Of a stretch of DNA of 64,000 nt, positions 5,273 through 39,544 are shown piece after piece. Source of the stretch: Fidelibacterota bacterium (GTDB taxonomy: Bacteria > Fidelibacterota > SORT01); the NCBI GenBank assembly GCA_022571215.1, contig JACZYG010000010.1:4876-68875 (forward strand), in the 5' to 3' direction. Every line of letters starts with the position of its first letter. Within the stretch, counting starts at the first letter, position 1. The notes under the pieces are model-generated. The model saw only the letters and a program-made list of their open reading frames with translations. It made no database searches and was not told where the DNA came from. The translations under genes and the position numbers were made by a program.

Positions 5273-5457
5273 ACTCTATACTTCCCCCAAACTCCATTTT
5301 CCATCCGCTTAAATTTAAGTCGGACAGTTCTATTGTCAAGATAGAAAAACAGTTTACTCCTGATAATCTAAAAGTCATCATATCAGGTTCGCAAATTGTA
5401 ATCACCGTTACTTCACACCATCGTATATTACCCTGAATAAAAATTATACATGGAGAT

Positions 5458-5961
5458 ATGACTTTGACTAAAATAATTAAAGAAATCGAGATAAACGAAT
5501 CAAAAGCAAAAGTTTGGTCAGTTTTGGCGGACATCGGAGCCATAGAAAACTTTAACCCTTCAGTAACGAAATCTTACTCAACATCAGAAAATAAGCAAGG
5601 TATCGGCGCAAGCAGGCACTGCGATCTTCTTCCTATGGGAAGCGTGGAGGAACGCATCATTGAATGGGAAGAAGGCGAAAGTTACAAAATAGAAATATTT
5701 GAAGGCAAGGCTATACCGTTTAAAGGGACCGGTAAATTTGAACTTACCGGCAATGGAAAATCCACTACTGTAAAAATGACCTTCGAACCAATTATGGGCA
5801 ACGGTTTATTGGGTAAGCTGATGGGTTTTATGATGAAAGGAAAAATGAACAAGATGATAGACGGCATAGTTATCGGATTAAAGCATCACCTTGAAACTGA
5901 TGAATTGGTATCAGCTAAAACTTATAAGAAGATAAGAAAACTATCCTCAGAGTTGAAATAG
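5458..5961 (+). CDS. SRPBCC (START/Bet v1-like, polyketide-cyclase-type) domain protein
   Basis: 167 aa. VWSVLADIGAIENFNPSV… pattern typical of SRPBCC ligand-binding proteins. Confidence 0.65.
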   Translation: MTLTKIIKEIEINESKAKVWSVLADIGAIENFNPSVTKSYSTSENKQGIGASRHCDLLPMGSVEERIIEWEEGESYKIEIFEGKAIPFKGTGKFELTGNGKSTTVKMTFEPIMGNGLLGKLMGFMMKGKMNKMIDGIVIGLKHHLETDELVSAKTYKKIRKLSSELK

Positions 5962-6139
5962 CATAATAAAAAGGCAAGATTTGTCTGTAAAGCGGTGAAT
6001 TAAATTTTATGATAAAATTAAGAAAGCGATTTCCTACGCCAAAATTTATTTCGGTATAGACACAGAAATGAATGCGCAGCTTTTTTGATTGTGCACTCTT
6101 AACTATCGTGAAAACAATAGTGAGGAATGGTAAGTATTA

Positions 6140-6352
6140 CTATTCAGCTGGTACTACGTTTTCAGCTTGTGGACCTTTATCACCTTCGGTAACAGTAAAC
6201 TCAACTTTCTGACCTTCCTCTAAGTTTTTGAAGCCGTCTCCTTGAATAGTTGAATAGTGAACGAATACGTCATCCGCACCTTCTCGCTCTATGAATCCAA
6301 ATCCTTTTCGCGAGTTAAACCATTTTACCGTACCTGTTTCGCGTTCTGCCAT
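6140..6352 (-). CDS. Cold-shock protein (CspA family)
   Basis: [15 protein letters not shown] (RNP1) and DVFVHYS (RNP2) motifs. 70 aa. AAGGAG RBS upstream. Confidence 0.95.
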
Positions 6353-6868
6353 GTTTAATTTACTCCTTTGTTAGTATAATCAGACAAAATCAAGCAATGG
6401 TTACAAATATCATCGCTTATAAGAATTTTCCATCTAATTTAATTTCCGAGAAGTCTGAAAGTGTGCTTTACTGAATGTTTCCTTGCATTAATACCAGTTA
6501 TTCAATAACAAAATTGCTCAAGTGAAATCAAATGTCAAGCTAAAAATCTCAAATTCTGGCTACATAATTTCGTATCTAAATGTGTGACAAATTAAATTTA
6601 TATATATCACTACTTTAACATCCGAATATCAGATTAGAGATTTTTCTCGAATTGAATAAAATCTTGCTTGATAGAAAATACTTTTGTAATGTATGACCAT
6701 TGTTGGTGCCACTAACTTCCTTACCAGCACTTACTTTAAAAGTATGCTGCTGTAATATGATGATTCGGATATTTGATTTATGCATGTTTCGAACATAATA
6801 ATCCCAATAACTTTTTTAATAATGACTAGTATCGATTATTTTCACACAAGAGCAAGAATGTTGGATTC

Positions 6869-9800
6869 ATGAAAAAATCCGCTGATATAGACATTATGCG
6901 TAGTAAATTATTGCCGAATAAATCCAATTCAGTCAAAGATCCAAAAAGTTCCGATCAAATCTATTTAAGCAAACTTCGGGATATAATCGGCGAAGCCATT
7001 TTCACGGTCGATCTGCCGAGCAGAAAGATCAAGTACGTCAATAACGCTATCGAGACCATCTTCGGATATAAAGATTATGAATGCATCGGAAAAACGACCG
7101 AGTTGTTCTATCCGACAAAAACAGAATTCAACAAAGTAGGCAAATTGCTGAAGGCAGCTATACGGGATGGTAAAAATATCCTCACCTTAGAATTGCGCCT
7201 CCGAAAGAAAAACGGAGATACTTTTCCGGCAGAGATCACCACAACGTTCATGAAAGAAGAGGGGAAATTTTCGCAAATTATCAGTATCGTCAAGGACCTC
7301 TCCAACCGGGTGATTACGGAAGAGACTCTCGAGCATAAACAAGAATATTTAGAACTTCTGCATAACAATATCGATGAAGCAATAGTTACCGTTGAGCTAC
7401 CCGGTAGGATCATCAAACATGTAAATAAAGCAGTGAAAAAAATATTCGGATATACCCCTGAAGAATGCATTGGAAGAAATACAGAACATTTTTTCCCTAA
7501 CAGAGACGATTACTTAAAAGCAGGTGAAAGGATTGAAAAACGAATAAAATCGGGGAAGAAATTCACGAGAATAGAACGTTTGCTGAAAAGGAAAAACGGG
7601 GAAATATTTTTAGCTGAAATTTCCACTTCCATTATGAAACTGAAAGATGGAACCAGACAAATCGTCTCAATTGCCCGAGATTTATCCAAAGAAACGGATA
7701 CCAAACTTGCCCTTCTGGAAAGTCAGGAACAACTTGAACAAATTTTTTCGAAAACTCATGTGCTGATAGCTTACATAGACACAAAGTTCAATTTTATCAG
7801 AGTTAACAAAGCATATGCGGATGCCGATGGTGAAAAACCTGATTATTACTCATTAAAAAATTACTTTGATCTTTATCCTAACAGTGAAAATAAGAAAATT
7901 TTCCGTGATGCCGTAAGAACCGGCACACCCTATCAAACATTTTCTAAACCACTCATTCCCAAAGAAAATCCTGAAAAAGATACTTCATATTGGGATTGGA
8001 ACCTTTACCCCGTTAAAGATTCAGATGATAATGTCGAGAGCTTAATTCTCTCCCTTATAGATGTCAGCGATCGTGTAAACGCCGAAAAAGCTGTTTTGGA
8101 AAGTGAGAAGAAATATAAAACGTTTTTTGAAGATTCAAAGGACGCAATTTACTTAACAAGCGTTGACGGTACAATTGAAGACGCCAACAATGCGTTTTTG
8201 AAATTATTCGGCTATGATAAAAATGAGATTATTGCGAACAACGTAAAATCCTTATACAGTAACCCTACTGATAGAGAAAAATTCTTACAGATAATTGAGT
8301 CGGAAGGCTCCGTTCTGGATTACGAACTGACGCTTAAGAAAAGAGATGGCACTGAAATTCAGTGCCTTGTCACGAGTAGCGCGAAAAGGGACGACGATAA
8401 TAATATTATAGGATATCAAGGCATAATCCGGGATATGTCCGAATCGATAAAGGCAGATGCGGAACTTAAAAAACTATCTAACGCCGTTGAACAAGCCGCC
8501 GAGATGATATTGATCGCAGATAATAATGGAATTATTCAATATGTCAATCCGGAGTTTGAGCTCATCACAGGCTATAAGAAAGATGAAGTGATTGGAAAAA
8601 CACCTCGCATCCTTAAATCTAATAAGCACCCGGAGGAGTTTTATAGGAATATGTGGGATATGATGTTAGGCGGAGATACTTTCAGAGGCTTGATCATCAA
8701 CAAGAAAAAAAATGGGGAGATTTATTATGAAGAAAAAATCATTTCTCCTCTTAAGGACGATGAAGGAAAAATTACTCATTTTGTTTCAAATGGCAGAGAT
8801 ATTACAAAACGCATTAATGCCGAGAAAAAAATAAAAGAACAAAGAAAATTCCTCAGGCAGGTTCTTGATATCAATCCCAATATTATATTCGCAAAGGACA
8901 AGGAAGGTCGCTATACCCTCGCAAATCAGGCAACGGCAAACTTGTTTAATACCACCATCAAGGATCTGATTGGGAAAAAGTATTCCGAGCTCAATCCGAA
9001 TTCCAGTGAAACGGAAGAAGACCTTAAAAACGACCAATTAATGTTTGAAACTTTGGAAGAAAGCATCAATCCTGAAAACCATGTTACGGACATAAACGGA
9101 ATTAAACACATTTATCACACCATTAAACGCCCTGTTATAGATGAACATGGTAAAGCAACTCATATTCTCGGTATTTCCATGGATATCACAGAGCAAAAAA
9201 AGGCTGAAGAAGAGAAAATAAATCTCGAGCGAAAACTCGAAAGGGCTCGTCGTATGGAATCGCTTGGAATTCTTGCAGGCGGAGTCGCACACGACCTAAA
9301 CAATATTCTCGGACCTATACTCGGATATCCCGATTTGATTCTGGCTACGCTGCCACCTGATAATCCAATTCGATCTGATCTTGAGATGATAAAAACAGCT
9401 GCGGAAAGGGCATCAGATGTAGTTCAGGATCTATTAACATTGGCTCGTAGAGGTAGATATGACATGAAGCCTTTGAACGTTAACGAAATGATCAAAGAAT
9501 ATTTCCTTTCCCCCACTTTTAAATCAAATAAAGCAAGATACCCGGATGTCAGTTACAAATTGGAGCTTGACGAGAATGTTAAATTTATTAAAGGCTCAAA
9601 CCCACATTTATCAAAAACAATCATGAATCTTGTGATTAATGCGTTCGAGTCGATGACTCATGGTGGAAATATGACACTGCGAACTTTCTCTGAATCTTTA
9701 GAAACCAGAACGCTCATTTTCGGAAAATTGCCTAAGGGTAACTATACTATCATAGATGTTAAAGATACGGGATTTGGAATTGAAGAAGAGGATCTACCAC

Positions 9801-10375
9801 ATATATTTGAACCGTTTTATACACGGAAAGAGATGGGCAGAAGCGGTTCCGGACTTGGTTTATCGGTAGTTTTTGGAGTGATACAAGACCATAACGGATA
9901 TTTAGATGTTTCCACAGAAATAGGCGTGGGGTCTACTTTCTCTATCTATTTACCATCAATTGAGAACCACCAAATTTCCAATAATAACATTGAAAAGAAT
10001 CTGAACGGCTCTGAAAGTATTCTTGTAGTGGATGATATAGAGGAACAAAGAAATTTGGCTGCAAGATTACTCTCGTCCCTTGGATACAAAACCGATACCG
10101 CTGAAAACGGAACGCAAGCTATCAAAATGTTAAAGAATAAACAATACGATCTGATAGTTCTTGACATGATCATGGAGGATAATTTCGACGGATTAGACAC
10201 TTTCAAAGAAATAATCAAGATTCGTCCCGATCAAAAAACTATTATCGTCAGTGGGTTCGCAGAGACCGAACGGGTAAAAGAAGCCCGAAACCTCGGGGTA
10301 GGCTCTTACATCAGGAAACCGTATAGCATTAAGAAAATTGGAACTGCCATCCGAGCAATGTTAGAAAAAAAATAA
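6869..10375 (+). CDS. Multi-PAS hybrid sensor histidine kinase (about 6 PAS, HisKA-like, HATPase_c, C-terminal receiver)
   Basis: Repeated PAS/PAC units. H-box [16 protein letters not shown], G1 and G2 boxes ([22 protein letters not shown]). Receiver ILVVDD…LIVLDMIM…KP. Confidence 0.9.
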   Translation: [1168 protein letters not shown]

Positions 10376-10555: not shown

Positions 10556-11905
10556 ATGACCATCTCTCTTAAAAAGATATCTCCTGAAGAGTACAGAAAA
10601 AATTTTGCCGATATGAAACCGGCTCTTTCCGAATCCGCGGCTATTGTTGAAGCGGGAAGATGTCTTTTCTGTTATGATGCTCCATGCACAAACATTTGTC
10701 CGACTCATATAGATGTTCCGGGTTTCATTAAGAAAATAATGACAGGTAATTATATCGGGTCAGCTAAAACTATCCTTTCTGAAAATATATTGGGCGAATC
10801 ATGCGGTCGAGCATGCCCTGTTGAAGTATTGTGTGAAGGGGCTTGCGTGATGAATGATAAAGATGAATTGCCCATCAAAATAGGTCAACTCCAGCGGTTT
10901 TCCACTGAATGGAGAAGAAATAACAAAAAGAGCATCTTTGACATTCCCGAATCTAATGGAAAATCTGTCGGTCTAATCGGGGCGGGTCCTGCAAGTCTTT
11001 CTTGCGCCGCTTACCTCAAGCTGAATGGTTATGACACCCTGATTTATGAGGCTGAAGAGCTAGCCGGCGGGTTGGATGCATTCGGTGTTGCAGAGTATAA
11101 ACTCACTCTAAAGAGTGTTTTAGATGAAATTGAAATGATAAAGGAGATGGGCGTTAAGATACAAACTGACACCAAAGTCGGAAAAGATATTTCTTTTGAT
11201 GAGCTACTAAAAAAACACGATGCCCTCTTTATCGGTATAGGGCTTGGACGAACACGTTCACTGGAAATTCCCGGTAACGATCTCAATGGAATTCATGATA
11301 CTATAGATTTTGTCAAAAAATATAAAACGAATCCGCCGGGTGAAACCGCAGTCGGTAAAAATGTCATTGTTATTGGCGGCGGAAATACTTCCGTTGACGC
11401 AGCTACCGCCGCAAAACGGCTCGGAGCTGATACGGTAACGGTACTTTACCGCCGCTCAGAATCGGAAATGCCCGCTTTCGCGCATGAATATGAGCATGCC
11501 AAAGCCGACGGAGTAAATTATCAATGGCTAACAAATCCGATAGCATTTATGGGAGATACCGATGTTGAAGCCGTAAAATGCATCAGAATGGAACTTGGAG
11601 AGCCGGACGATTCTGGAAGGCGGCAACCTATCAGTGTCCCCGGTACGGAATTCACCATCCCCGCTGATATGGTCTTTTTAGCTCTCGGACAAGTTGCGGA
11701 TAAAGAGTTCATTAAATCCATTCCTGAGGTAGGATTCAGCAATGGCAAAATTGTAGCCGATCCTAAGAATGGAAAAACATCCAATCCGCGAATATTCGCA
11801 GGAGGCGATGTTGTTCACGGCGCTAAAGAGGTTGTAAATGCCGTTCAAGCCGGAAAACTTGCGGCGTATGAAATAAATAAATTTTTATCTGATGAAGAGG
11901 ACTAA
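10556..11905 (+). CDS. preT: NAD-dependent dihydropyrimidine dehydrogenase subunit PreT (GltD-like Fe-S/FAD/NAD subunit)
   Basis: Cys clusters CLFCYDAPC…CP and CGRACPVEVLCEGAC. Two dinucleotide folds, GLIGAGPASLS and VIVIGGGNTSVD. Immediately precedes preA. Confidence 0.85.
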   Translation: MTISLKKISPEEYRKNFADMKPALSESAAIVEAGRCLFCYDAPCTNICPTHIDVPGFIKKIMTGNYIGSAKTILSENILGESCGRACPVEVLCEGACVMNDKDELPIKIGQLQRFSTEWRRNNKKSIFDIPESNGKSVGLIGAGPASLSCAAYLKLNGYDTLIYEAEELAGGLDAFGVAEYKLTLKSVLDEIEMIKEMGVKIQTDTKVGKDISFDELLKKHDALFIGIGLGRTRSLEIPGNDLNGIHDTIDFVKKYKTNPPGETAVGKNVIVIGGGNTSVDAATAAKRLGADTVTVLYRRSESEMPAFAHEYEHAKADGVNYQWLTNPIAFMGDTDVEAVKCIRMELGEPDDSGRRQPISVPGTEFTIPADMVFLALGQVADKEFIKSIPEVGFSNGKIVADPKNGKTSNPRIFAGGDVVHGAKEVVNAVQAGKLAAYEINKFLSDEED

Positions 11906-11907
11906 TA

Positions 11908-13215
11908 ATGGCTGACCTAAGTATAGATTTCTGTGGAATCAAATCACCAAATCCCTTTTGGCTGGCATCCGCGCCTCCAAGTAACTCGGCGTATCAAGTC
12001 AACAGAGCCTTTGAAGCGGGTTGGGGCGGCGCAGTGTGGAAAACTATCGGCGCGCCCGTGATGAATACATACAACCGTTACGCCGGACTTGACGGCCCGG
12101 AACAAAAACTGATCGGACTGAATAATATCGAGCTGATCAGCGATAGGAACATAGAAACCAATCTAAAAGAGATCGCCGAAGTAAAAAAGAACTGGCCAGA
12201 CAGAGCCGTCATTACTTCACTAATGGTTGAATCTGATAAAGAGGTATGGCGCGATATTGTGAAAAGAACCGAGGATACCGGTTGCGACGGAATAGAATTA
12301 AACTACGGGTGTCCCCACGGTATGAGTGAAAGAGGTATGGGCGCTGCCGTAGGGCAGGTACCCGAATATTGCTCCATGATAACAGAGTGGGTCACTGAAG
12401 TTGCGTCTATTCCGGTTATAGTGAAACTTACTCCGAATATTACGGATATTGTCCAACCTGCCCGAGCCGCCGTGAAAGGAGGAGCGGATTCTGTCTCCCT
12501 CATCAACACCATCAACAGCATTATCGGTATTGATCTCGACAGCTTCGAAACAGTTCCCTCCGTCGGAGGAAAGGGTTCACACGGCGGATTCGCGGGTCCG
12601 GCAGTGAAGCCGATTGCCCTTCATATGGTTTCAGCGGTAAGCATGGATGACCAGGTGAATGTGCCTATATCCGGTATCGGAGGTATTTCCGATTGGCGGG
12701 ATGCCGCTGAATTCATGCTGCTCGGCGCTACAAGCGTGCAGGTTTGCACTGCGGTAATGCATTATGGCTTCAGGATCATAGAAGACATGATAGACGGTAT
12801 GAGCAACTGGCTGGATGAAAAGGGAATACGGTCTGTCGAAGAAATTATCGGCAAGTCAGTTGAACGGATCACGAATTTCGGGGAGCTGAATCTTCTGTAC
12901 AAAACAGCGGCGCTGATCGATAAAGATAAATGCATCTCATGCAATTTGTGCTACATAGTCTGTGAAGACACAGCCCATCAATGCATCGACCTTAAACCAT
13001 TTGATGGGGGCGTAAAACCGGAAGTAAGAGAAGATGACTGTGTCGGTTGCAGACTTTGTTTCATGGTTTGCCCTGTGCACGGATGCATAGAAATGGTAGA
13101 ATTAGATTCTCCCGCTGAGAAAACATGGAAAGAGCTGGAAGGAGAACTCTCGGATCCGATGAGTTGGGAAGACCTGAGAGAATTCCAGAAAAAGCACGGC
13201 ATAGAAATTCATTAA
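11908..13215 (+). CDS. preA: Dihydropyrimidine dehydrogenase subunit PreA (DHODH-like FMN barrel plus 2x[4Fe-4S] tail)
   Basis: DHOD-like core (GIELNYGCPHGM, KLTPNITD, GIGGI). C-terminal ferredoxin motifs CISCNLCYIVC and CVGCRLCFMVCP. Confidence 0.9.
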   Translation: MADLSIDFCGIKSPNPFWLASAPPSNSAYQVNRAFEAGWGGAVWKTIGAPVMNTYNRYAGLDGPEQKLIGLNNIELISDRNIETNLKEIAEVKKNWPDRAVITSLMVESDKEVWRDIVKRTEDTGCDGIELNYGCPHGMSERGMGAAVGQVPEYCSMITEWVTEVASIPVIVKLTPNITDIVQPARAAVKGGADSVSLINTINSIIGIDLDSFETVPSVGGKGSHGGFAGPAVKPIALHMVSAVSMDDQVNVPISGIGGISDWRDAAEFMLLGATSVQVCTAVMHYGFRIIEDMIDGMSNWLDEKGIRSVEEIIGKSVERITNFGELNLLYKTAALIDKDKCISCNLCYIVCEDTAHQCIDLKPFDGGVKPEVREDDCVGCRLCFMVCPVHGCIEMVELDSPAEKTWKELEGELSDPMSWEDLREFQKKHGIEIH

Positions 13216-13240
13216 GAATCAGAATATGAGGATATAGATC

Positions 13241-14626
13241 ATGTCAATACTCATCAAAAACGGAACGGTAATAAATGCTGACGGAACACAAAAAGCTGAT
13301 GTTCTTGTCGAGGAGGAGATCATCTCGAAGATAGGTGAATCATTAGATGACGAAGCGGATAAGGTTATTGACGCAACCGGAAAATACATCATCCCCGGCG
13401 GAATTGACGTTCACACTCATCTTGACATGCCATTCGGCGGAACGGTATCTTCTGATAATTTTGAGACGGGTCACATAGCCGCGGCTTTTGGCGGAACCAC
13501 ATCTCATATAGATTTTATAATTCAGGGGAAGGGACAATCGCTCGCCGAAGCAACGGATATTTGGCATTCAAAAGCCGACGGTAAGGCTTGTGTTGATTAT
13601 GGTTTCCACATGGCTATTACGGACATGACCGAATCCGTTATGGAAGAGCTTCCGACACTTATCCATACCGGAATCAGCAGCATCAAGCTCTTCATGGCTT
13701 ATAAAAATGTTCTTCAGGTTGATGATGAAACGCTTTTTAAATCGTTGCAGATTGCAGGCGATAACGGTCTCCTCACTTGCGTTCACGCTGAAAACGGTGA
13801 CGCGATTGACGTTTTGATAAAACAGATGCTCGCAGCAGGAAATACCGATCCAATTTACCACGCCAAATCAAGACCTCATTGGGCGGAAGCGGAAGCTACT
13901 TCAAGGGCGATTCATCTCGCGGCGATTGCGGACGCTCCTCTTTTCGTAGTTCATCTAACTTGCTCCTCAGCCCTAGATCAGATAAAATTGGCTCGCGCCA
14001 ATGGGCTAAAAGCGATGGCGGAGACCTGTGTGCAATATCTTTTTACGACGGAGGATGATCTCGCCCGTCCCGGTTTTGAAGGAGCAAAATATGTATGCTC
14101 CCCCCCGCTCCGCACAAAAAAAGACCAGGAGGCGTTGTGGGACGGACTCATAAACGGTGACCTCGCAAGTATCTCCACAGACCATTGCACCTTCAATTAC
14201 GAAGGTCAAAAAGATCTCGGCAGAGAGGATTTTTCTAAAATCCCGAACGGACTTCCCGGAATTGAAGATCGAATGATGGTCATGCATCATCATGGAGTCG
14301 GCGGAGGGCGATTCAGTTTAGAGAGATGGGTGGAAATTACATCCGCTAATCCCGCAAAGACTTTCGGTATGTATCCCCGAAAAGGCGTTATAGCCGTGGA
14401 AAGCGATGCCGACCTGGTCATCTGGGACCCCGAAAAGGAACACACTATTTCCGCCGAAACTCATCATATGAACATAGACTATAATTTATACGAGGGGATG
14501 CAAGTTAAAGGTATGCCCGAAACGGTTTTCTCGTCCGGACGAATCGTTATTGAAAACGGGGAATTCAAGGGTAAGGTTGGAGCGGGTAGTTTCATTCGCC
14601 GGGAAGCGATAGTAGACGTACTGTAA
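13241..14626 (+). CDS. Dihydropyrimidinase / D-hydantoinase
   Basis: Cyclic amidohydrolase signature PGGIDVHTHLDMPF, carboxylated-Lys region SIKLFMAYK, HAENGD, and STDHC. Confidence 0.9.
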   Translation: MSILIKNGTVINADGTQKADVLVEEEIISKIGESLDDEADKVIDATGKYIIPGGIDVHTHLDMPFGGTVSSDNFETGHIAAAFGGTTSHIDFIIQGKGQSLAEATDIWHSKADGKACVDYGFHMAITDMTESVMEELPTLIHTGISSIKLFMAYKNVLQVDDETLFKSLQIAGDNGLLTCVHAENGDAIDVLIKQMLAAGNTDPIYHAKSRPHWAEAEATSRAIHLAAIADAPLFVVHLTCSSALDQIKLARANGLKAMAETCVQYLFTTEDDLARPGFEGAKYVCSPPLRTKKDQEALWDGLINGDLASISTDHCTFNYEGQKDLGREDFSKIPNGLPGIEDRMMVMHHHGVGGGRFSLERWVEITSANPAKTFGMYPRKGVIAVESDADLVIWDPEKEHTISAETHHMNIDYNLYEGMQVKGMPETVFSSGRIVIENGEFKGKVGAGSFIRREAIVDVL

Positions 14627-14656
14627 CCATATCAAGCAATCAACTTTGGAGTAATA

Positions 14657-16066
14657 ATGGCAGAGCTCGCTAAGGGTATCATCTATGGTATTGAAGACAA
14701 ACCGCCGATTGGTAAGCGCGCTGTTCTCGCTCTGCAGCATGTCCTCACCATGTTCGGCTCCACTGTAAGCGTCCCTCTCCTGCTTGGTCCTGCCATGAAT
14801 ATGACCCCTTCCGAAATAGTGATCCTCGTTAGTTCCGTAATGCTCTGCTCGGGTATTGCCACGTTCTTACAAGTCACTATAGGAAGCAGACTCCCGATTG
14901 TTCAGGGCGTCTCTTTCAGTTTTCTCGCGCCTTTTTTCGCTATCATAGCGTTCGCTAAAACGGGAAATTTAAGTATGCAGTATATCGCCGGAGCGATAAT
15001 ACTCGGCGCATTTATAGAAATAGCAATAGGACATTTCAAACTGATAGGAAAGTTACGGAAATATATCAGTCCTGTAGTTATCGGTCCCGTGATAATGCTC
15101 ATCGGACTTTCGCTCTTCAAGGTCGGCGCTCCGAAAGCGGGAACCTACTGGCCCATTTCCGGTATCGTGATATTGGGAATAGTTCTGTTCAGTCAAGTAT
15201 TCTCAAAGAAATATAAATTTTTCAGGCTCTTTCCGATTCTCAGCGCTATTGTTATCGCTTATCTCGCGTGTGTTTTCTTTACGTTCATTGGAAGCTTCGG
15301 ACCCGGCCACCCCGCTTATATTAACATGAGCATAGTATCCGATTCTACATGGTTCAAACCGCTTGACAGCATATTCTTTCCGTGGGGACTTCCTAAATTC
15401 CATGTAGGATTTTTCTTCGCGGTTCTTGCGGGCTATCTCGCAAGTATGATAGAATCGTTCGGCGACTATCACGCGGCAGCGTATATGTCAGGAGCGGGAG
15501 ACCCGACCGAAGAAATGCTTAACAAGGGTATTCGTTCGGAAGGATTGGGCTGTTTGATAACAGGGGTTCTCGGCGGGTTCGCAAGCACATCTTATTCGGA
15601 AAATATCGGTCTTATTGGAATAACAAAAGTCGCTTCCCGTCATGTTGTGATGCTCGGAGCCGGTTTTCTAATCCTACTCGGATTCTTCAGCAAGTTCGGC
15701 GCTCTCGTTGCTACAATACCAGAGCCGATTGTCGGCGGGTTGTATACCGCCCTGTTCGGACTGATATCCGCAGTGGGAATACAGCAGCTCGCCCGCGCTG
15801 ACCTTTCGAGCGACCGCAATCTAATGATAGCGGGCTTATCACTCTTTATGGGACTTTCGATGCCCGCATATATTGAAGGTGTTGCGGCTTTCGGCTATGC
15901 TCCCGGAGCGGATGCCATCGCCGCCGCTCTTCCGAAAGCGCTTGCTGATATAGTTAATTCTGTTCTTTCAACAGGGATGGCTGTCGCCGCTCTGATTGGG
16001 CTTACGCTGGATAATCTTATTCCCGCTTCGGATGAAGAGCGTGGCATTATTCAGGCGGCTAAATAA
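14657..16066 (+). CDS. NCS2-family nucleobase (uracil/xanthine-type) permease
   Basis: 469 aa polytopic protein. LALQHVLTMFGSTVSVPLLLG and ESFGDY…SENIGLIGITKV motifs are typical of NCS2/SLC23-like permeases. Last gene of the preTA operon. Confidence 0.8.
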   Translation: MAELAKGIIYGIEDKPPIGKRAVLALQHVLTMFGSTVSVPLLLGPAMNMTPSEIVILVSSVMLCSGIATFLQVTIGSRLPIVQGVSFSFLAPFFAIIAFAKTGNLSMQYIAGAIILGAFIEIAIGHFKLIGKLRKYISPVVIGPVIMLIGLSLFKVGAPKAGTYWPISGIVILGIVLFSQVFSKKYKFFRLFPILSAIVIAYLACVFFTFIGSFGPGHPAYINMSIVSDSTWFKPLDSIFFPWGLPKFHVGFFFAVLAGYLASMIESFGDYHAAAYMSGAGDPTEEMLNKGIRSEGLGCLITGVLGGFASTSYSENIGLIGITKVASRHVVMLGAGFLILLGFFSKFGALVATIPEPIVGGLYTALFGLISAVGIQQLARADLSSDRNLMIAGLSLFMGLSMPAYIEGVAAFGYAPGADAIAAALPKALADIVNSVLSTGMAVAALIGLTLDNLIPASDEERGIIQAAK

Positions 16067-16398: not shown

Positions 16399-16797
16399 CT
16401 ATTTCTTACCGATCTTCAGACTATAAGCCCACGGTTCCGGTATATATAAAAACATCAGACATGCTCCGATGAACGTGAAGTTTCGTAGAAAACTTGAAAA
16501 CTCTTTTCCACGAGCAACCGCATCATCTATGTTCCAGAAATCATGCATGATGATAGTCACGGGAATCAAAAAAGCGATCAGAAGATAGGCGCCGATCTTC
16601 GGATACTGTCCGGTGAGTATGCTGATGCCACCAAAAACGAGCAAAGTAGCCGCAACTATAACGGCTAATTCGGGCAGCGGAACTCCTTTCGACGCGGTGT
16701 AATTCGTTATCCCATCTAATTTAATAAAAAGGTTTACGCCACTTCTGACAAAGAAACCGCCGAACAAGATCCTTCCTGCAAAGAATGCTTTATCCAA
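16399..16797 (-). CDS. DoxX-family membrane protein
   Basis: 132 aa, 4 TM. GRILFGGFFVRSGVNLF… typical DoxX N-terminus. Confidence 0.7.
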   Translation of the reverse strand: MDKAFFAGRILFGGFFVRSGVNLFIKLDGITNYTASKGVPLPELAVIVAATLLVFGGISILTGQYPKIGAYLLIAFLIPVTIIMHDFWNIDDAVARGKEFSSFLRNFTFIGACLMFLYIPEPWAYSLKIGKK

Positions 16798-16841
16798 GAT
16801 TTTATCTCCTTTTTCATATGATCAAATTACAGTTTAGCTCG

Positions 16842-17603
16842 TCAGAATTCTAACGACACAACCCCTCCTACTCCCTTCCCCGGAAGAGGAAACATTTTCC
16901 AGGAGAGGTTGTTACCAACATCTGTGCTTGAATATATTTCCTTCTTTTCGATATATCTGTCATACGTCTTTTCTAACTTTAATTTTGATTTATATCTCCA
17001 AACGCCCATACCAACCATAGATACGCCGAGCAAAAACTCTTCGGAACCTTCAAAGGCTAAAGATATTCCCCAAGCTGTGATTAATCCACTGATGATATAC
17101 CGCTTTATTCTTGCAGACCGCGCAAATTTTTCAAATCTGAGTTCACCCTCTTTCAATTTTCTTTCTGCTTTATCCGGGGTTGTTTCCGGTATCTCTCCAA
17201 ACTCTATGTAGTATTTTTCTACGTCAGAAAGATGTGACCTTGCGTGTAAACCTATAGGAAGATAAATCGCGCCATTTAATAAAAAAAATACGGCTCCAAT
17301 TATTGCAAATTCCCCAGAATCGTTCAATAATAATAATCCTTGAATTATGGACGCAGTACCGAGTCCAATTAGTATATAACTACCCAGAATTCTTTCTCGT
17401 TTACTATCTTTGGATACCGAATAAAGCGCGCTGTCTAATTCGGTTAGCTGGGGGTTGTCCGAATTATTAAAAATGTTGCGGGAAAAAGCTTCGTTAAAGC
17501 TGATTTTATCCCTCTTAATTTGCGCCGGAGTGGTTTTGATATCGGAGCCAATGACCAAAATGGAGGTTAATAACGCACAGATGATAAATTTGGGACCTGT
17601 CAT
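16842..17603 (-). CDS. Hypothetical membrane protein with signal peptide
   Basis: Long ORF with an N-terminal signal sequence and several hydrophobic helices. No family recognised. Confidence 0.5.
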   Translation of the reverse strand: MTGPKFIICALLTSILVIGSDIKTTPAQIKRDKISFNEAFSRNIFNNSDNPQLTELDSALYSVSKDSKRERILGSYILIGLGTASIIQGLLLLNDSGEFAIIGAVFFLLNGAIYLPIGLHARSHLSDVEKYYIEFGEIPETTPDKAERKLKEGELRFEKFARSARIKRYIISGLITAWGISLAFEGSEEFLLGVSMVGMGVWRYKSKLKLEKTYDRYIEKKEIYSSTDVGNNLSWKMFPLPGKGVGGVVSLEF

Positions 17604-17680
17604 GTTTCCTCCTAATTTTATCTTAGTTAGAAGCTAAAAATCTCTCTCCTTTTTCTGTAACATGAAAAGCGGATGGCAAA

Positions 17681-19051
17681 TTATGTTCGTCCTATAATTA
17701 TCGCTAAAGATTCATCTATTATTTTCAATGCGTCTTCTATTTGCGATTTAGAAACTGACATAGGCGGCGCAATCCGGAAGACATTGCCATAAAGACCGCC
17801 CTTGCCTATCAGCAAACCCCTTTTCTTTGTCTCTTCAAACAGTTTCATCGTTATCAGGGCATTCGGAGTCCGGTCGCCGTTAGGTTCGTCTTCAACCATC
17901 TCCATTGCCTGCATAAGTCCCATGCCACGCACTTCCCCTATGACCTTCGGATATTTGGCGGCAATTTCTTCAAGACCCTCTCTCAGCAATTCACCCGTTG
18001 CCTCGGCGTTGGCGCGAAAATCTTTCTCCAACAATATGTCGATAGTCGCGTTTGCCGCCGCTGAAGAGATAGGATTGCCGCCGAAAGTAGATATTGTGAG
18101 TTTCTTGAGAGACGCCGCCACCTCGTCTGTCGCAATCGTCACGCCTAACGGCATCCCGTTGGCGATTCCTTTTGCCATCGTCATCACTTCAGGTTCGACT
18201 CCGTAATGTTCTATGCCGAATATCTTTGAGCCTGTTCTTCCGAATCCGGTCTGTACCTCATCGCAGATGAATATTCCGCCGTATTTACGAATAATATCAA
18301 CTGCAATTTGAAAATATTCCTTCGGCGGAGTAATGAACCCGCCCACTCCCTGAATCGGTTCAGCCAGAAATCCCGCGATCTGTCCTGTGGTGGTTGTGAG
18401 TATAAGTTCTTCTATATCCTGGGCGCATTTGATCTCGCAGGAAGGATATTCAAGACCGAGCGGGCACCGGTAACAATACGGACTCATCGCATGCTTTATA
18501 GCCGCTATCTGAGTGGGAACCGAACGCCACGCTGAGTGCGCTGTCAGGGATTGAGCTAAGAGCGACCTGCCGGAGTAGCCATGTCTCAGCGCTATGATCT
18601 CCATATTCCCCGTGAACAGTTGCGCCAACATGACGGCGGTTTCATCCGCTTCGGTACCCGATGCGCTGAAGAAACTCTTTTTAAGCGCTCCCGGCGTGAT
18701 CTTAGCCAAGCGTTCCGCTAACTCTACCATAGGAATTGTGGGATATAGGGTTGATACATGCCCCAACCGGTTCATTTGAGCGGAAATCGCTTTATTGACC
18801 CGGTCGTCCGCATGACCGATCGATACGGTGAGTATTCCTCCGAAAAAATCGAGATACTCTTTCCCGTCAACGTCCGTCAGATAGCACCCTTTTCCCGACT
18901 CGAGAGCGATCGCTTCCGCGTAATAGTTTATTACAGACGGAAAAAGATATTCGTCATGTTTTTCTTTAAGTTTTGCTGATGTTAATTTTTCTTCGATGTT
19001 AGAGCTGTTTTCCGTTTCTGTTTCAGGCGTTTGGGTCACTGAGTTTCCCAT
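17681..19051 (-). CDS. Class-III PLP aminotransferase; by context beta-alanine:2-oxoacid (pyruvate/2-OG) transaminase
   Basis: Typical class-III segments GSGTEADE…, CDEVQTGFGRTG, TMAKGIANG (PLP Lys). Lies in the operon with beta-ureidopropionase and mmsA. Confidence 0.8.
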   Translation of the reverse strand: MGNSVTQTPETETENSSNIEEKLTSAKLKEKHDEYLFPSVINYYAEAIALESGKGCYLTDVDGKEYLDFFGGILTVSIGHADDRVNKAISAQMNRLGHVSTLYPTIPMVELAERLAKITPGALKKSFFSASGTEADETAVMLAQLFTGNMEIIALRHGYSGRSLLAQSLTAHSAWRSVPTQIAAIKHAMSPYCYRCPLGLEYPSCEIKCAQDIEELILTTTTGQIAGFLAEPIQGVGGFITPPKEYFQIAVDIIRKYGGIFICDEVQTGFGRTGSKIFGIEHYGVEPEVMTMAKGIANGMPLGVTIATDEVAASLKKLTISTFGGNPISSAAANATIDILLEKDFRANAEATGELLREGLEEIAAKYPKVIGEVRGMGLMQAMEMVEDEPNGDRTPNALITMKLFEETKKRGLLIGKGGLYGNVFRIAPPMSVSKSQIEDALKIIDESLAIIIGRT

Positions 19052-19067
19052 ATGTTTCCGGTCTCCT
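19023..19067. repeat. Direct repeat copy 1 (45 bp, perfect) flanking the hicAB cassette
   Basis: tcaggcgtttgggtcactgagtttcccatatgtttccggtctcct is identical to 19564-19608. It contains the aminotransferase ATG (19051-19049) and its AGGAGA RBS (19067-19062). Confidence 0.95.
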
Positions 19068-19074
19068 ACTATTA

Positions 19075-19296
19075 TTATGCAAGCATCAAGTGCCCTTTTG
19101 GTTCAGGTATAGGTCGATTTAATTCTTTAGCAGTTCCTATCCACTCATTTATCACAACTTCAACATTAGACAATGCCTCTTTATGTGTCTTCCCATCCGA
19201 AGAGCATCCAGCTAATTCAGGTACTTCAGCTATAAAGGAATCGTCATCCTTGCTCCAATAAATTATGATTTCATATTTAGTCATCGTCAAGTTCAT
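19075..19296 (-). CDS. hicB: HicB-family antitoxin
   Basis: YEIIIYWSKDDDSFIAEVPELAGCSSDGKTHKEALSNVEVVINEWI is the typical HicB N-terminal domain. Overlaps hicA by 20 nt. Confidence 0.85.
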   Translation of the reverse strand: MNLTMTKYEIIIYWSKDDDSFIAEVPELAGCSSDGKTHKEALSNVEVVINEWIGTAKELNRPIPEPKGHLMLA

Positions 19297-19540
19297 TCTC
19301 CAGTTTATATTTAATTATAAGATTACGAAATTGTTTTACCTGATAAGGTTTGGCCATTTTCCCTTTGGGTTGAATATTTAGTATTTCCTTAATTTCATTT
19401 CTCGTATAAATATGGTGGCTACCTTTAATTCTTTCATCGAAACCTAACTCTTTTAATAGCCTGCATATATCGTTAAATGTAATATTTCGATCAGACGTTC
19501 CACCAATTATTTTGATTAATAGTTTTTTATTCCTACCCAT
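19277..19540 (-). CDS. hicA: HicA-family mRNA-interferase toxin
   Basis: LLKELGFDERIKGSHHIYT…KPYQVKQFRNLI fits the YcfA/HicA fold pattern. 87 aa. Lies upstream of hicB as in canonical hicAB. Confidence 0.8.
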   Translation of the reverse strand: MGRNKKLLIKIIGGTSDRNITFNDICRLLKELGFDERIKGSHHIYTRNEIKEILNIQPKGKMAKPYQVKQFRNLIIKYKLENELDDD

Positions 19541-19563
19541 CTAAATTTAAGTTAAGGAATTCC

Positions 19564-19608
19564 TCAGGCGTTTGGGTCACTGAGTTTCCCATATGTTTCC
19601 GGTCTCCT
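19564..19608. repeat. Direct repeat copy 2 (45 bp, perfect) flanking the hicAB cassette
   Basis: Identical to 19023-19067. Here it encodes the C-terminus …RRPETYGKLSDPNA* of beta-ureidopropionase. Confidence 0.95.
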
Positions 19609-20436
19609 GTCTCTGTAAAATTGCCACACCCTTCTCACCTCGTCTATCATGTCAAGGTCGAGTTCTGCGGTAATTAGTTCATCTTTATCTTCACTTGCTT
19701 CGGCGAGAAAATTACCACGTGGGTCTACAAAATAACTCGTACCGTAAAATTCGCCTATATTCCATGGCGATTCGGTTCCGACACGGTTACTGCAAGCCAT
19801 GAAATATCCGTTCGCCACGGCATGAGCCGGCTGTTCTAATTTCCATAGATATTGTGAAAGTCCTTTTACTGTAGCTGACGGATTGAACACTATCTCCGCT
19901 CCGTTCATACCAAGCATCCTTGCTCCTTCGGGGAAATGCCTGTCGTAGCAGATATAAACCCCCACTTTGGCGTAACGTGTCTCAAATACGGGATAGCCCA
20001 TATTGCCCGGTTTGAAAAAGAATTTTTCCCAAAAACCGGATGTGTGAGGTATATGATGTTTGCGGTATTTGCCGAGATAAGTTCCGTCAGCATCCACTAC
20101 GGCGGCAGTGTTATAGAAGACTCCGGGTTGTTCCTCCTCATAAACCGGAATTATAAGTACCATCTCATACTTTTTTGCATAAGGTATCAGAGCCTCTACG
20201 GTAGGCCCGGGAACAGGTTCAGCCGCATCGTACCAGCGCGGATCCTGGCTCGGACAGAAGTACGGGCCGTTGAATATCTCCTGAAGTCCGAGAATTTTTA
20301 CTCCCGCCTTCCCCGCTTCATCTATGAACGGAAGATGTTTATCAAACATAGCCTTTTGAATCTTCTCTATCGATTCCTTTTCGTCATTGATAGGATTTGA
20401 ACATTGTATCAAGCCGCATTTAACTATTCTCGGCAT
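19564..20436 (-). CDS. Beta-ureidopropionase (N-carbamoyl-beta-alanine amidohydrolase), nitrilase/CN-hydrolase superfamily
   Basis: CN-hydrolase triad context (LQEIF…E, YRKHHIP K, VYICYDRHFPE C). 290 aa. Pathway context. Confidence 0.8.
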   Translation of the reverse strand: MPRIVKCGLIQCSNPINDEKESIEKIQKAMFDKHLPFIDEAGKAGVKILGLQEIFNGPYFCPSQDPRWYDAAEPVPGPTVEALIPYAKKYEMVLIIPVYEEEQPGVFYNTAAVVDADGTYLGKYRKHHIPHTSGFWEKFFFKPGNMGYPVFETRYAKVGVYICYDRHFPEGARMLGMNGAEIVFNPSATVKGLSQYLWKLEQPAHAVANGYFMACSNRVGTESPWNIGEFYGTSYFVDPRGNFLAEASEDKDELITAELDLDMIDEVRRVWQFYRDRRPETYGKLSDPNA

Positions 20437-20463
20437 CTGCTGCTCCTAAAATTATTCATGCCT

Positions 20464-21975
20464 TTACCAGCGTGAAATTTCAACCTTCTTATCCGTATAG
20501 AATTCTATACTGTCTTTTCCGTGCGCCTTCAGATCACCGAAAAACGAACCCTTTGCTCCTCCAAAAATGAAAAACGACATAGGAGCAGGAACGCCGATAT
20601 TAATTCCTATCATACTCGCATCGACATTATACCTGAATTTTCGGGCATTTTTACCTGATGTAGTGAAGATAGAGATAGTATTTGCGAGCGGATGGTCGGA
20701 TATAAGCTCAATCGCATTGTCGAGGTCTTTTACTTTCATCATTGACAGCACCGGACCGAAAATTTCCTCTTTTGCGATGGTCATTGACGGTGTAACATTT
20801 TCGAAGATCGTCGGTCTAAGATAAAAACCTCCCTCTTTTCCTTCTACTTTGGCTTCCCTGCCGTCAAGGATCATATCGGCGCCTTCCTTTATTCCTATTT
20901 CGATATAAGAGAGAACTCTTTCTTTATGACGGGCGGATACTACAGGTCCCATTATTACTTCCTCATCAAGACCGCTGCCTATTTTAATATTTGTGGCTTT
21001 TTTGACGATCAGATCTTTTAATTCGTCATATATCTTTTCATCGCCAAGCAGCATACTTGCCGCGAGACAACGCTCACCGGCGCAACCGAAACAGGATGCG
21101 ATAATCGCCTCAGCAGCCAATTCAAGGTCTGCGTCATCGCTAACTACCACAAAGTTCTTCGCTCCGCCTAACGCTTGAACGCGTTTACCGTTCTTACTGG
21201 CGAGTGTGTAGACATGTTTTGCCACAGGCGAAGAGCCAACGAATGAAACTCCTTTAATATCGGGATGTGTGCAAATACCATCTACAACTACCTTATCACC
21301 GTGTACAAGGTTTACGACTCCGGGTGGAAATCCTACTTCGTCAATCAACTCAAAGATCAAGTTAGAAGTCATCGGAACCTGTTCCGATGGCTTTAATATA
21401 AAGGTGTTTCCGGTCGCAACGGCATAAGGCAGGAACCATAGCGGAACCATCGCAGGAAAATTAAACGGGGTAATCGCCGCAAATACACCCATAGGTCGCC
21501 TGTATACCACAGTGTCAATTCCGGATGCCACATCCTCAAGGGACATGCCCTGCATCATAGTAGGAATGCCTGCCGCGACCTCCACATTCTCCACAGCCCT
21601 GCGTACGGAACCGCGCGCTTCATCGAATGTTTTCCCGTGTTCTAAAGTCAATACACGTGCAATATCGTCAAACCTTTCTTCCATCAGGGTTTTGAGTTTA
21701 AAGAAATATCTCGCTCGTTTAACCGGAGGTGTTCTCCTCCAGGCAGGAAAAGCTTTTTGCGCCAATTCAACCGCCTCGTTAAATTCAGATTCGGTGGTAA
21801 GCGGTAATTTCGCCAATTGGTTACCATTGGACGGATCTATTATATCAAGAACGCGCTCGGAATTTGATTGAACGAACGCGCCGTTCACATAGTTTTTAAG
21901 TATCATTACATCAGTGCCGGCTTCATTCGCGCCTTTATCAAGAACTGCCGATGCCGTTTCAGATGAGCTAATCAT
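20464..21975 (-). CDS. mmsA: CoA-acylating (methyl)malonate-semialdehyde dehydrogenase
   Basis: ALDH fold with the MmsA-type segment ITPFNFPAMVPLWFLPYAVATGNTFILKPSE and catalytic Cys in AGERCLA. 503 aa. Confidence 0.88.
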   Translation of the reverse strand: MISSSETASAVLDKGANEAGTDVMILKNYVNGAFVQSNSERVLDIIDPSNGNQLAKLPLTTESEFNEAVELAQKAFPAWRRTPPVKRARYFFKLKTLMEERFDDIARVLTLEHGKTFDEARGSVRRAVENVEVAAGIPTMMQGMSLEDVASGIDTVVYRRPMGVFAAITPFNFPAMVPLWFLPYAVATGNTFILKPSEQVPMTSNLIFELIDEVGFPPGVVNLVHGDKVVVDGICTHPDIKGVSFVGSSPVAKHVYTLASKNGKRVQALGGAKNFVVVSDDADLELAAEAIIASCFGCAGERCLAASMLLGDEKIYDELKDLIVKKATNIKIGSGLDEEVIMGPVVSARHKERVLSYIEIGIKEGADMILDGREAKVEGKEGGFYLRPTIFENVTPSMTIAKEEIFGPVLSMMKVKDLDNAIELISDHPLANTISIFTTSGKNARKFRYNVDASMIGINIGVPAPMSFFIFGGAKGSFFGDLKAHGKDSIEFYTDKKVEISRW

Positions 21976-22041
21976 GTCATTGCCTCCAATTTATATTCAA
22001 ATACTAAAAGATTACTCTTTCAAGACCTCCCGGTAGCGGAA

Positions 22042-22070
22042 ATATTAACTGATATTAGCTGATTTGTCAA
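22042..22070 (-). promoter_or_regulatory. Strong sigma-70 promoter (TTGACA-17-TAATAT) for the mmsA operon
   Basis: On the minus strand: ttgaca (22070-22065), 17-nt spacer, taatat (22047-22042). About 65 nt upstream of the mmsA ATG. Confidence 0.55.
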
Positions 22071-31339: not shown

Positions 31340-31684
31340 GTGGCAACAAAATATTTAAATCAACTCGAATCACTATTTCAAAAAGTGGAATTAGCGGGAA
31401 TAGACAATATAAAACTCGAGTTTAAACACTTTTTTAGCGGCGCAGCGGTTTATGCGAACGGAAAAATTTGTATCACATTAACGCCTGCAGGATTTGCTTT
31501 GAAGCTATCAAAACCGGATATTGACTCTCTCCTGGAATCGGAAGGAAATAAAAGACTTCGTTATTTCCCAAAATCTCCGGTAAAAAAAGATTATGTGGTA
31601 CTATCGGACAGTATCCTCAATAATGCCAATTCATTGGACAGTTTGATCAGGAAAAGCATCGAACTTGCCGCGGAACAATCATGA
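31340..31684 (+). CDS. TfoX N-terminal-domain family protein
   Basis: FKHFFSGAAVYANGKICITLTPAGFALKL resembles the TfoX_N fold core. GTG start. ATGA overlap with the next gene. Confidence 0.5.
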   Translation: MATKYLNQLESLFQKVELAGIDNIKLEFKHFFSGAAVYANGKICITLTPAGFALKLSKPDIDSLLESEGNKRLRYFPKSPVKKDYVVLSDSILNNANSLDSLIRKSIELAAEQS

Positions 31685-39296: not shown

Positions 39297-39400
39297 AAAT
39301 TGTTACCCGCTTTCGATTTTTTTAATATAAGCAATGCATATTTTTTGATGTTTAAATTTATTTTATCGCTGTCTAAAACACAAGCTTTGTATTCTCAATA

Positions 39401-39418
39401 TGATACATAACTGTATCA
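39401..39418. promoter_or_regulatory. Palindrome tgataca-taac-tgtatca, candidate enhancer (UAS) for the NtrC-type activator
   Basis: Perfect 7-bp arms, about 130 bp upstream of the sigma-54 promoter at 39545, in the divergent ntrC/kinase intergenic region. Confidence 0.35.
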
Positions 39419-39544
39419 AAGTGACATAATTTTTTCAAATACGGGATTCTTCGTCAAAGCAATTTTCCGTAAAGCATTACTGATAACTTATAAACACCAT
39501 ATTCATTTGTTTATATGATATTGTAAAGAGACTCTTCCCTCTTT

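Follow-up and report, generated by a model that had tools for sequence, protein, structure and literature searches.

A minimal hicAB cassette bracketed by a 45-bp duplication of host coding sequence at a polymorphic bup/aminotransferase junction in Fidelibacterota

A predicted hicAB toxin-antitoxin (TA) pair lies between bup, the beta-ureidopropionase gene, and a class-III aminotransferase gene in a 64,000-nucleotide stretch of a Fidelibacterota genome (contig JACZYG010000010.1, positions 4,876 to 68,875; hereafter the window, numbered from its first letter). The pair is bracketed by two perfect copies of a 45-mer that is itself host coding sequence, and a survey of about 45 alleles of the same junction revealed empty sites, sites filled with related cassettes and sites in which a transposase module stands in place of the toxin gene. 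We read the locus as the product of a minimal selfish hicAB cassette whose target would have been duplicated at insertion and which would later have spread, been swapped and been lost by recombination at the 45-mers, a reading to which we give about an even chance of being right.

The 45-mer (AGGAGACCGGAAACATATGGGAAACTCAGTGACCCAAACGCCTGA in coding-strand sense) occurs twice with a start-to-start distance of 541 bp, the pair being the sole direct repeat of at least 22 nt within the window; identity over 45 nt has a chance expectation of about 4^-45. Read along the minus strand, the order is mmsA, bup, hicA, hicB and the aminotransferase gene (Table 1). In the upstream copy (45A), which reads RRPETYGKLSDPNA followed by the stop in the bup frame, a redundant aminotransferase Shine-Dalgarno sequence (SD; AGGAGA) and ATG are also kept, and the downstream copy (45B) encodes the aminotransferase N-terminus MGNSVTQTP. 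The limits of the repeat are the first base of the aminotransferase SD and the last base of the bup stop codon, and this 45-bp SD-to-stop segment is the minimum that keeps both host genes whole. An earlier note, made from the letters of the window, had described two identical 45-mers enclosing 496 bp that hold hicA and hicB alone (23 bp before hicA, 7 bp after hicB), had assigned to the repeat the dual role of bup 3' end and of ribosome-binding site, ATG and first nine codons of the aminotransferase gene, and had considered the duplication just enough for both genes; coordinates and translations reproduced this arrangement throughout, the repeat spanning exactly the segment from SD start to bup stop.

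Nine further independent assemblies reproduce this structure without a single base difference, and it is also present in a 99.6% identical variant (L092) and in a contig of an NCBI metagenome-assembled genome (MAG; L097). Although short repeats can be mis-joined in metagenome-type assemblies such as that of the window, filled sites are found in about 30 independent assemblies produced by different assemblers, including two NCBI MAGs, and diverged variants whose 45-mers differ cannot be collapsed copies of one another. On these comparisons misassembly appears effectively excluded, and we attach a negligible probability to an assembly artefact.

Relatives devoid of hicAB had been predicted from the window to carry one 45-mer and a 29-nt overlap between the host genes, and they do. 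The closest genome, L001 (Marinimicrobia MT.SAG.2, a single-cell genome from the Mariana Trench whose Bup is 96% identical to that of the window), has a single 45-mer with one mismatch, and its bup (4001-4873) overlaps the aminotransferase gene (4845-6206) by 29 nt; metagenome contigs L081-L083 show the same empty site, again with one 45-mer carrying one mismatch. In more distant relatives bup and the aminotransferase gene are adjacent with a spacer of roughly 10-120 nt, and distant aminotransferase homologues are devoid of the N-terminal extension found here; the 29-nt overlap is therefore specific to this subclade. Since the extension is missing from these homologues, it is dispensable; it made the overlap possible. 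The first 20 or so aminotransferase codons past the 45-mer (ETETENSSNIEEK..., window 18960-19022, and their equivalents in L001 and L098-L124) are hypervariable between otherwise near-identical lineages. The empty sites also bear on the order of events. Had a 45-bp tandem duplication parted the genes before the cassette landed without a duplication of its own, the first step would have been of a common kind, short tandem duplications being frequent, and only about 0-16 nt would then have tolerated insertion, so that insertion exactly at the joint would not be wildly improbable. No bare tandem 45-mer was found among the empty sites, however, and this course calls for two rare events, an exact SD-to-stop duplication plus an insertion exactly at its joint; we hold it to be very improbable.

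The filled alleles fall into distinct types. In the W type (the window, L084-87, L089-92, L096 and L097) the two 45-mers are identical and both carry a lineage-specific A at position 15. The c2 type (L098-L107) has a cassette 92.5% identical to that of W and a downstream 45-mer with two changes ('45v'), and in the Z type (L094, L118-L124) the cassette is about 94% identical to that of the window and full-gene bup 80-82% identical. In the R type (L095, L108-L117) a RAYT gene and double hairpins of the repetitive extragenic palindromic (REP) kind replace hicA, hicB and the right junction are kept, and the repeat measures 48-49 nt. The empty type, with its one 45-mer and 29-nt overlap, comprises L001 and L081-83. 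Three host lineages carry hicAB cassettes, with flanks 81-100% identical. The bup genes of L001 (empty) and L098 (c2-filled) are 100% identical, and L001 and the RAYT-type L109 share 99.8% identity in bup and 99.2% in the aminotransferase gene. The occurrence of empty, c2 and R alleles on such near-identical backgrounds shows presence or absence of the cassette to be a current polymorphism, and the site is a polymorphic hotspot.

All complete hicAB cassettes in the three lineages (22 of 22 alleles) are exactly 496 bp long, at least 92% identical and bounded by the same two junctions. Synonymous divergence (pS) in bup amounts to 0.53 between W and L001-like genomes and to 0.67-0.77 between Z and the others; in hicA and hicB it is 0.16-0.26 between the same lineages, two to four times lower. 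Allele L097 has flanks 99.2-99.7% identical to those of the window and a cassette just 95.6% identical, which is a mosaic whose left part resembles W and whose middle resembles c2. The low pS of the hic genes relative to bup and the mosaic of L097 show a cassette genealogy decoupled from that of the hosts, with horizontal flow between lineages and recombination between cassettes. HicA relatives more than 90% identical all lie at this junction and the next ones are at most 69% identical; copies of the cassette elsewhere, for which the earlier note had suggested looking, were found at no other site. The upstream flank of L098 is 100% identical to the L001 lineage and the body of its aminotransferase gene 99.6% identical to the window lineage, so that this contig is a chimera of metagenome assembly unless it records genuine recombination between lineages across the cassette. 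Four hybrid contigs (L088, L098, L120 and L123) were treated as possible chimeras formed via the shared cassette, and no conclusion is drawn from them alone.

The substitutions in the 45-mers are informative as to how the copies arose. In every lineage the substitutions peculiar to the host are present in both copies (A15 in W, G13 plus C21 in Z), and the changes that distinguish one copy from the other are limited to those that the freed reading frame permits. Thus 45A of lineage Z carries GCT/GAT/AAT, changes that are synonymous or conservative for bup and would alter the aminotransferase, with L122 showing an intermediate state, and the change in 45B of c2 (a7) lies in the SD-ATG spacer and would be Pro to Thr in bup. 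The downstream 45-mers of lineage Z were reached through HicA variants P0263 and P0264; a protein search with the aminotransferase N-terminus returned partial proteins only and none of the Z type. The pattern shows that within each lineage the copies were alike at the outset and drifted afterwards. Repeated duplication in situ would produce it, and so would a single origin with subsequent gene conversion or re-conversion from conspecific empty alleles.

Duplication of the recipient's own 45 bp is what would be expected of recurrent site-specific integration, in which a non-autonomous 496-bp element would be served by an enzyme acting in trans and cutting the strands 45 nt apart. Host substitutions in both 45-mers of W, Z and L001-like genomes, boundaries that are the same in every lineage, a cassette two to four times younger than the host split, the concentration of all close copies at a single site and the presence of an HUH transposase (RAYT) at that site in sister alleles are all in keeping with such a process. 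Single origin predicts identical boundaries equally well, however; the window encodes no candidate enzyme, the cassette has neither terminal repeats nor hairpins, the 45-mer is without structure, and the length of the duplication is not fixed (48-49 nt with a different left junction in RAYT-type alleles, 7 nt at yafNO of Escherichia coli). We know of no bacterial transposase or integrase with a 45-bp stagger, the nearest case being the duplication of CRISPR repeats by Cas1-Cas2. We regard recurrent site-specific integration as possible, if rather unlikely.

The RAYT module of the sister alleles encodes an HUH tyrosine transposase of 193-212 amino acids (aa) (L108:2261-3000, L095 and L109-L117), assigned on the basis of NCBIfam NF047646 (score 99 bits, cutoff 80). 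On either side of the gene stand REP double hairpins that share one orientation and fold with z = -4.7, and an orphan hicB (MNNKYEI...) remains next to it. The repeat of these alleles is the 45-mer extended by AAC(A/G), and their left junction is unlike that of the hicAB alleles. No REP-like sequence was found in the window, even allowing three mismatches, and RAYT is therefore unavailable in cis here. A third REP copy lies in frame within the RAYT coding sequence (L108:2628-2675; INCVDAALTQSMHSK) and causes the protein to exceed the 146 positions of the family profile. REP copies have been mis-translated by gene callers as N-terminal extensions of hicB (P0252, P0271). In several RAYT alleles (L108, at 3220-3264, L110, L112 and L116) the downstream 45-mer has lost one base between SD and ATG (GGAATCTATG vs GGAAACTTATG), rendering the spacing 1 nt shorter.

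One contig carries a junction of another kind. At L093:546-642 (sample ERZ27267383), the right end of a cassette is followed by the diverged 45-mer 45v, after which another cassette, with about 11% divergence, begins at its left end. Given that an assembly with k=141 can yield such a junction only from real reads, it indicates that tandem arrays or circular 541-bp units exist. A 541-bp circle consisting of the cassette and a captured 45-mer could integrate reversibly by a single Campbell-type crossover at the chromosomal 45-mer, which would serve as an att-like site for RecA or a host recombinase; the repeat would in that case be no target duplication. The L093 junction is as expected from a circle or from its tandem integration, the 49-nt repeat of the RAYT type (45-mer plus AACA) looks as if a new circle had captured four extra nucleotides on the aminotransferase side, 45v travels with cassette c2 across different downstream flanks, and the empty sites are exact. 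This course leaves unexplained how the first circle acquired its 45-mer, and 45 bp is a poor substrate for RecA. In lineage Z, moreover, 45B resembles its host in the 5' half and the other lineages in the 3' half, the reverse of what a single crossover predicts. Circles have not been seen directly, and we judge integration of this type to be unlikely.

Searches for mobility functions were negative. No integrase, transposase or tyrosine recombinase gene was found in the 64-kb window, inspection of the cassette ends and an inverted-repeat scan of positions 17000-21500 revealed no terminal inverted repeats, and in a folding comparison with shuffled sequences neither the 45-mer (z of 0.4-0.7) nor the cassette ends stood out, hairpins being absent from the ends. 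These results bear out the earlier statement that no transposase, integrase or terminal inverted repeats accompany the cassette. They leave standing, too, the remark that 45 bp is far longer than usual target-site duplications: short fixed duplications range from 2 to 14 bp, and that of the RAYT-type allele is 48-49 bp. Several classes of element were rejected on this basis. An integron cassette was dismissed since the 45-mer has no attC-like fold and, by inspection, no GTTRRRY core, and the window no integrase; an insertion sequence, transposon or miniature inverted-repeat transposable element, since the 496 bp hold only hicA and hicB, with no terminal inverted repeats and no fixed short duplication; and an IS200/IS605-type or palindrome-associated transposable element, since hairpins are absent from the cassette ends and a duplication is present, REP hairpins occurring only in the sister RAYT allele. 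A phage-borne cassette was likewise set aside, a cassette-invariant 36-nt segment being unmatched in viral contigs and the nearest viral HicA being 55% identical. Other long repeats marking similar insertions were sought, and the window holds no further repeat of at least 22 nt.

The direct repeats restore the target gene as the att repeats of an integrative element, or of a cis-mobilizable element (CIME) derived from one, do, and the cassette might be an addiction module left between attL and attR by the erosion of an integrase-bearing island whose target was the 3' end of bup and which brought a replacement for that gene end. Direct repeats restoring the 3' end of a gene typify integrative elements (e14 in icd is an example), remnants of this kind frequently retain TA modules, and tandem accretion resembles the L093 junction. 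Yet the insert measures exactly 496 bp in 22 of 22 alleles with no remnant sequence, none of the approximately 45 alleles of the site bears an integrase, the cassette is absent from viral contigs, and the repeat also rebuilds the 5' end of the downstream gene, which is abnormal for attP. A decayed element seems to us a highly doubtful source.

The cassette itself has the features of a type II HicAB system as judged from its predicted products: a HicA domain, the Gly-Ser-His motif and a HicB fold immediately downstream. HicA scores 38.2 bits against PF07927 (cutoff 27), its approximately 980 homologues are all PF07927-positive and its variants all read IKGSHHIY; the catalytic role of the histidine of the Gly-Ser-His motif is known from work on HicA proteins. 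No relative of HicA was found in the PDB at E <= 0.01. The HicB proteins (69-73 aa) score above the cutoffs of both PF15919 and PF21748 and cover only positions 1-59 of the 123 of PF15919, the nearest solved relative being the stand-alone protein TTHA0281 (PDB 2dsy). In Pfam profiles and the PDB search nothing beyond the HicB fold appeared, so that a DNA-binding domain that could serve autoregulation is lacking. As HicB-fold proteins that stand alone form a recognised subtype, this lack is compatible with membership in HicAB. The ratio of nonsynonymous to synonymous divergence (pN/pS) between cassette types is 0.14-0.16 for hicA and 0.02-0.11 for hicB, and both genes are therefore maintained by purifying selection.

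In keeping with the AT-richness first noticed from spot counts, the cassette has a G+C content of 32.5%, compared with 46.0% for bup, 48.4% for the aminotransferase gene and 41.7% for the window, which places it within the lowest 1.5% of 496-bp windows. Nor does it seem to have a promoter or terminator of its own, as had been proposed from the lack of room: a scan of the coding strand in and beside the cassette revealed no promoter-like or terminator-like site beyond one chance-level match, located inside the hicA/hicB overlap (9 matches found vs 9.4 expected). An Rfam scan of the region for structured RNA gave no match at E <= 1.

Transcription of hicAB would then come by read-through from the candidate operon promoter upstream of mmsA, and the arrangement is suggestive of co-transcription with the bup/aminotransferase operon. 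The SD scan found none before hicA; SD sequences are present in about 40% of the long open reading frames (ORFs) of the window, including mmsA, bup and the aminotransferase gene. A 19-codon leader ORF that starts in 45A and overlaps the start of hicA (Table 1) is open in all seven distinct haplotypes of 45A and spacer. We propose, as a hypothesis only, that it is a candidate translational coupling device for hicA, whose translation might be coupled to the leader through the duplicated host SD/ATG. The hicB ATG overlaps the stop of hicA (ATGACTAA), so that the gene order is toxin first and hicB starts 8 nt inside hicA; translation of hicB would be coupled to that of hicA through this overlap, and the aminotransferase would be translated from the second SD/ATG copy in 45B.

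A case bearing on the length of the duplication is found in E. coli K-12, where yafNO lies in the dinB/yafP overlap with the heptamer ATTATGA on both sides (L127:1448-1454 and 2207-2213). In the empty E. coli allele the dinB TGA overlaps the yafP ATG (ATGA, 4 nt). The predicted collapsed dinB/yafP junction has a single perfect match in strain EcN and was found, at a query coverage of at least 80%, in 2,570 of 5,426 complete E. coli genomes. The architecture thus recurs in E. coli. With an overlap of 4 nt the duplication at yafNO measures 7 bp, and the overlap of 29 nt accounts for the 45 bp seen at the present locus; this scaling argues for a variable-length duplication filtered by selection, which it fits better than an enzyme of fixed stagger. 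No repeat was found flanking mazEF in E. coli. The literature searched contained no account of the heptamer flanking yafNO or of long overlap duplications around TA pairs.

Insertion of a selfish cassette followed by recombination at the 45-mers, the reading we prefer, can be laid out as follows. The cassette would have inserted exactly into the 29-nt bup/aminotransferase overlap with a 45-bp target duplication, parting the two genes intact. The duplication may stem from one or a few illegitimate events, for example a template switch or a staggered break that was filled in, and duplications made in this way would vary in length. Selection would keep only those covering the whole SD-to-stop segment, so that the shortest viable length is the one observed. 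The 45-mers, conserved by coding in two frames, and the flanking genes would from then on serve as homology arms, allowing exchange between lineages, mosaics, tandem amplification or excision of 541 bp, and precise loss to a functional empty site. Several points weigh against this reading. The lineage-specific substitutions shared by both 45-mers are explained more simply by repeated duplication in situ, and a single origin with spread needs gene conversion or re-conversion to account for them. Homologous recombination is inefficient between flanks 81-87% identical, and in lineage Z host-specific sequence reaches within 6 nt of the cassette. Neither a bare tandem 45-mer nor a longer duplication was found among the surveyed alleles. 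The contigs L088, L098, L120 and L123 could be metagenome chimeras rather than true recombinants, an open leader frame is expected by chance with a probability of about 0.5, and the break fill-in or template-switch step is one that we infer.

TA pairs within operons are known, and strains without the pair keep an undisturbed operon (PMC7167474); REP sequences occupy such operon sites in E. coli, as at folA-apaH (PMC7167474). The way in which chromosomal TA modules move and integrate has been called 'unelucidated to this day' (PMC7167474) and 'poorly characterized' (PMC13617665) in reviews. Like yafNO between dinB and yafP and mazEF between relA and mazG, the pair described here lies between two cistrons of an unrelated operon, and relatives without it (L001, L081-83) have an undisturbed junction, as seen for other operon-embedded TA insertions; where the E. 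coli folA-apaH site holds REP, sister alleles here hold a RAYT/REP module. The promoters of mazEF and yafNO are autoregulated or LexA-controlled. In contrast, the present cassette appears to have no promoter of its own and its HicB no DNA-binding domain, and translation of the toxin gene may draw on the duplicated SD/ATG as well. Integron gene cassettes, including those with TA pairs in chromosomal superintegrons, share with it the small promoterless format, the upstream promoter, the repeats between cassettes, the possible arrays or circles and a cargo (TA pairs are frequent in integrons), but the 45-mer is a duplicated host coding target rather than a cassette-borne site, and the window has neither attC nor intI. 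Integrative elements and CIMEs similarly show direct repeats of tens of bp that keep the target intact, exact empty sites and possible tandem accretion. They differ in that no allele here carries an integrase, the insert is an invariant 496 bp and the repeat restores the 3' and 5' ends of two genes. Cas1-Cas2 and casposons are, to our knowledge, the only well-known prokaryotic integration systems that duplicate targets of about 14-48 bp, by widely staggered attacks; with no cas genes in the window, no leader and no repeat-like structure, the parallel is one of analogy only. Direct repeats also bracket a ParE/RelE module in Photorhabdus, flanked by res-I-like sites of which a relative without the module has a single copy (PMC13617665), and a ParDE-like module in Microcystis, fenced by 152-bp direct repeats (PMC7935541). 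The repeats of these two modules are intergenic and element-derived (Tn3 res; inverted sub-repeats), whereas here a host coding overlap has been duplicated.

Table 1. Positions in the window of the hicAB cassette, its bracketing repeats and the genes and signals of the host operon
Feature	Position	Strand	Remarks
Candidate operon promoter	22041..22070	-	best sigma-70-like site, TTGACA-17-TAATAT; consensus match alone; about 66 nt upstream of mmsA
mmsA-like aldehyde dehydrogenase gene	20464..21975	-	first gene of the operon
bup	19564..20436	-	beta-ureidopropionase, CN_hydrolase, 290 aa; upstream host gene
45A (upstream 45-mer)	19564..19608	-	last 14 bup codons and TGA
Leader ORF	19533..19592	-	19 codons, MGNSVTQTPEEFLNLNLDG followed by stop; starts at vestigial SD/ATG in 45A; TAG overlaps hicA start (ATGGGTAG)
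Cassette	19068..19563	-	496 bp: 23-nt leader, hicA, hicB, 7-nt tail (TAA hicB stop, then TAA TAG T)
hicA	19277..19540	-	predicted toxin gene, 87 aa; PF07927, E = 1.6e-9; GSHH motif; no SD within 20 nt
hicB	19075..19284	-	predicted antitoxin gene, 69 aa from conserved start MTKYE...; PF15919 and PF21748; ORF extendable to 19296
45B (downstream 45-mer)	19023..19067	-	aminotransferase SD AGGAGA, 10-nt spacer, ATG, first 9 codons
Class-III aminotransferase gene	17681..19051	-	456 aa; downstream host gene

The host operon is part of a larger set of genes. The whole reductive pyrimidine pathway is encoded in the window by two convergent clusters (10556-16066 on the plus strand and 16399-21975 on the minus strand). 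The plus-strand cluster comprises genes for a PreT/PreA-like dihydropyrimidine dehydrogenase, a dihydropyrimidinase and a uracil/xanthine permease; in the minus-strand cluster mmsA, bup and the aminotransferase gene are followed by genes for an unknown 253-aa protein and for DoxX. Housekeeping functions are also encoded in the 64-kb window. A small protein with a TfoX N-terminal domain is encoded at 31340-31684 on the plus strand. The TfoX N-terminal family includes competence regulators, and this protein gives a weak hint of possible DNA uptake, which would suit a recombination-based spread of the cassette. Four large sensor kinases of the multi-PAS type are encoded in the window, together with a sigma-54 activator, an Hpt protein and receiver proteins. 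The most AT-rich stretches of the window (28-32% G+C) are positions 6150-6700, where a long intergenic leader precedes the gene for a very large hybrid histidine kinase of the multi-PAS type (6869-10375), and 39000-39650, where the minus-strand gene of the sigma-54 activator (37920-39296) starts and where the intergenic leader of the other large multi-PAS kinase gene (39635-43546) lies.

Much about this locus has precedents: TA pairs in operons that vary between strains, REP sequences at such sites, and repeat-bracketed TA modules with single-copy empty sites are already known. A selfish TA pair in an operon is a known kind of biology, and the locus demonstrates no new enzyme, chemistry or mechanism. 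What is new is that a dual-coding overlap has been duplicated over such a length, that the cassette is so completely stripped down, that the allelic states co-occur in one population and that the genealogies of cassette and host are decoupled. Beyond this we tentatively entertain a broader proposal, which we ourselves think improbable as it stands. There might be a regular route, independent of integrases, by which TA cassettes enter genomes and which leaves a duplication of variable length exactly across a stop/start overlap (45 bp here, 7 bp at yafNO), and the cassette with one copy of its target (541 bp) might be self-targeting, circularising, re-integrating across lineages and stacking in tandem. 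If this were true, the locus would hold all intermediates of an undescribed mechanism of TA mobility: empty, filled, tandem or circular, and toxin-replaced.

The junction offers a clean natural experiment in one uncultured deep-sea population, with exact empty and filled sites, a long and informative duplication, a possible tandem or circular intermediate and a toxin-loss allele, and it makes the acknowledged question of how TA pairs integrate directly testable. An insertion in overlapping genes may survive only where the whole overlap and the initiation region have been duplicated, in which case the length of the duplication would report selective constraint rather than the enzyme involved, an idea that the comparison with yafNO supports. 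A TA pair could, in addition, dispense with a promoter, an SD and a repressor domain of its own and depend entirely on the transcription and translation signals of the operon in which it resides. Finally, each copy of a once dual-coding segment would drift only in the frame that has been freed, affording a direct view of the constraint imposed by gene overlap.

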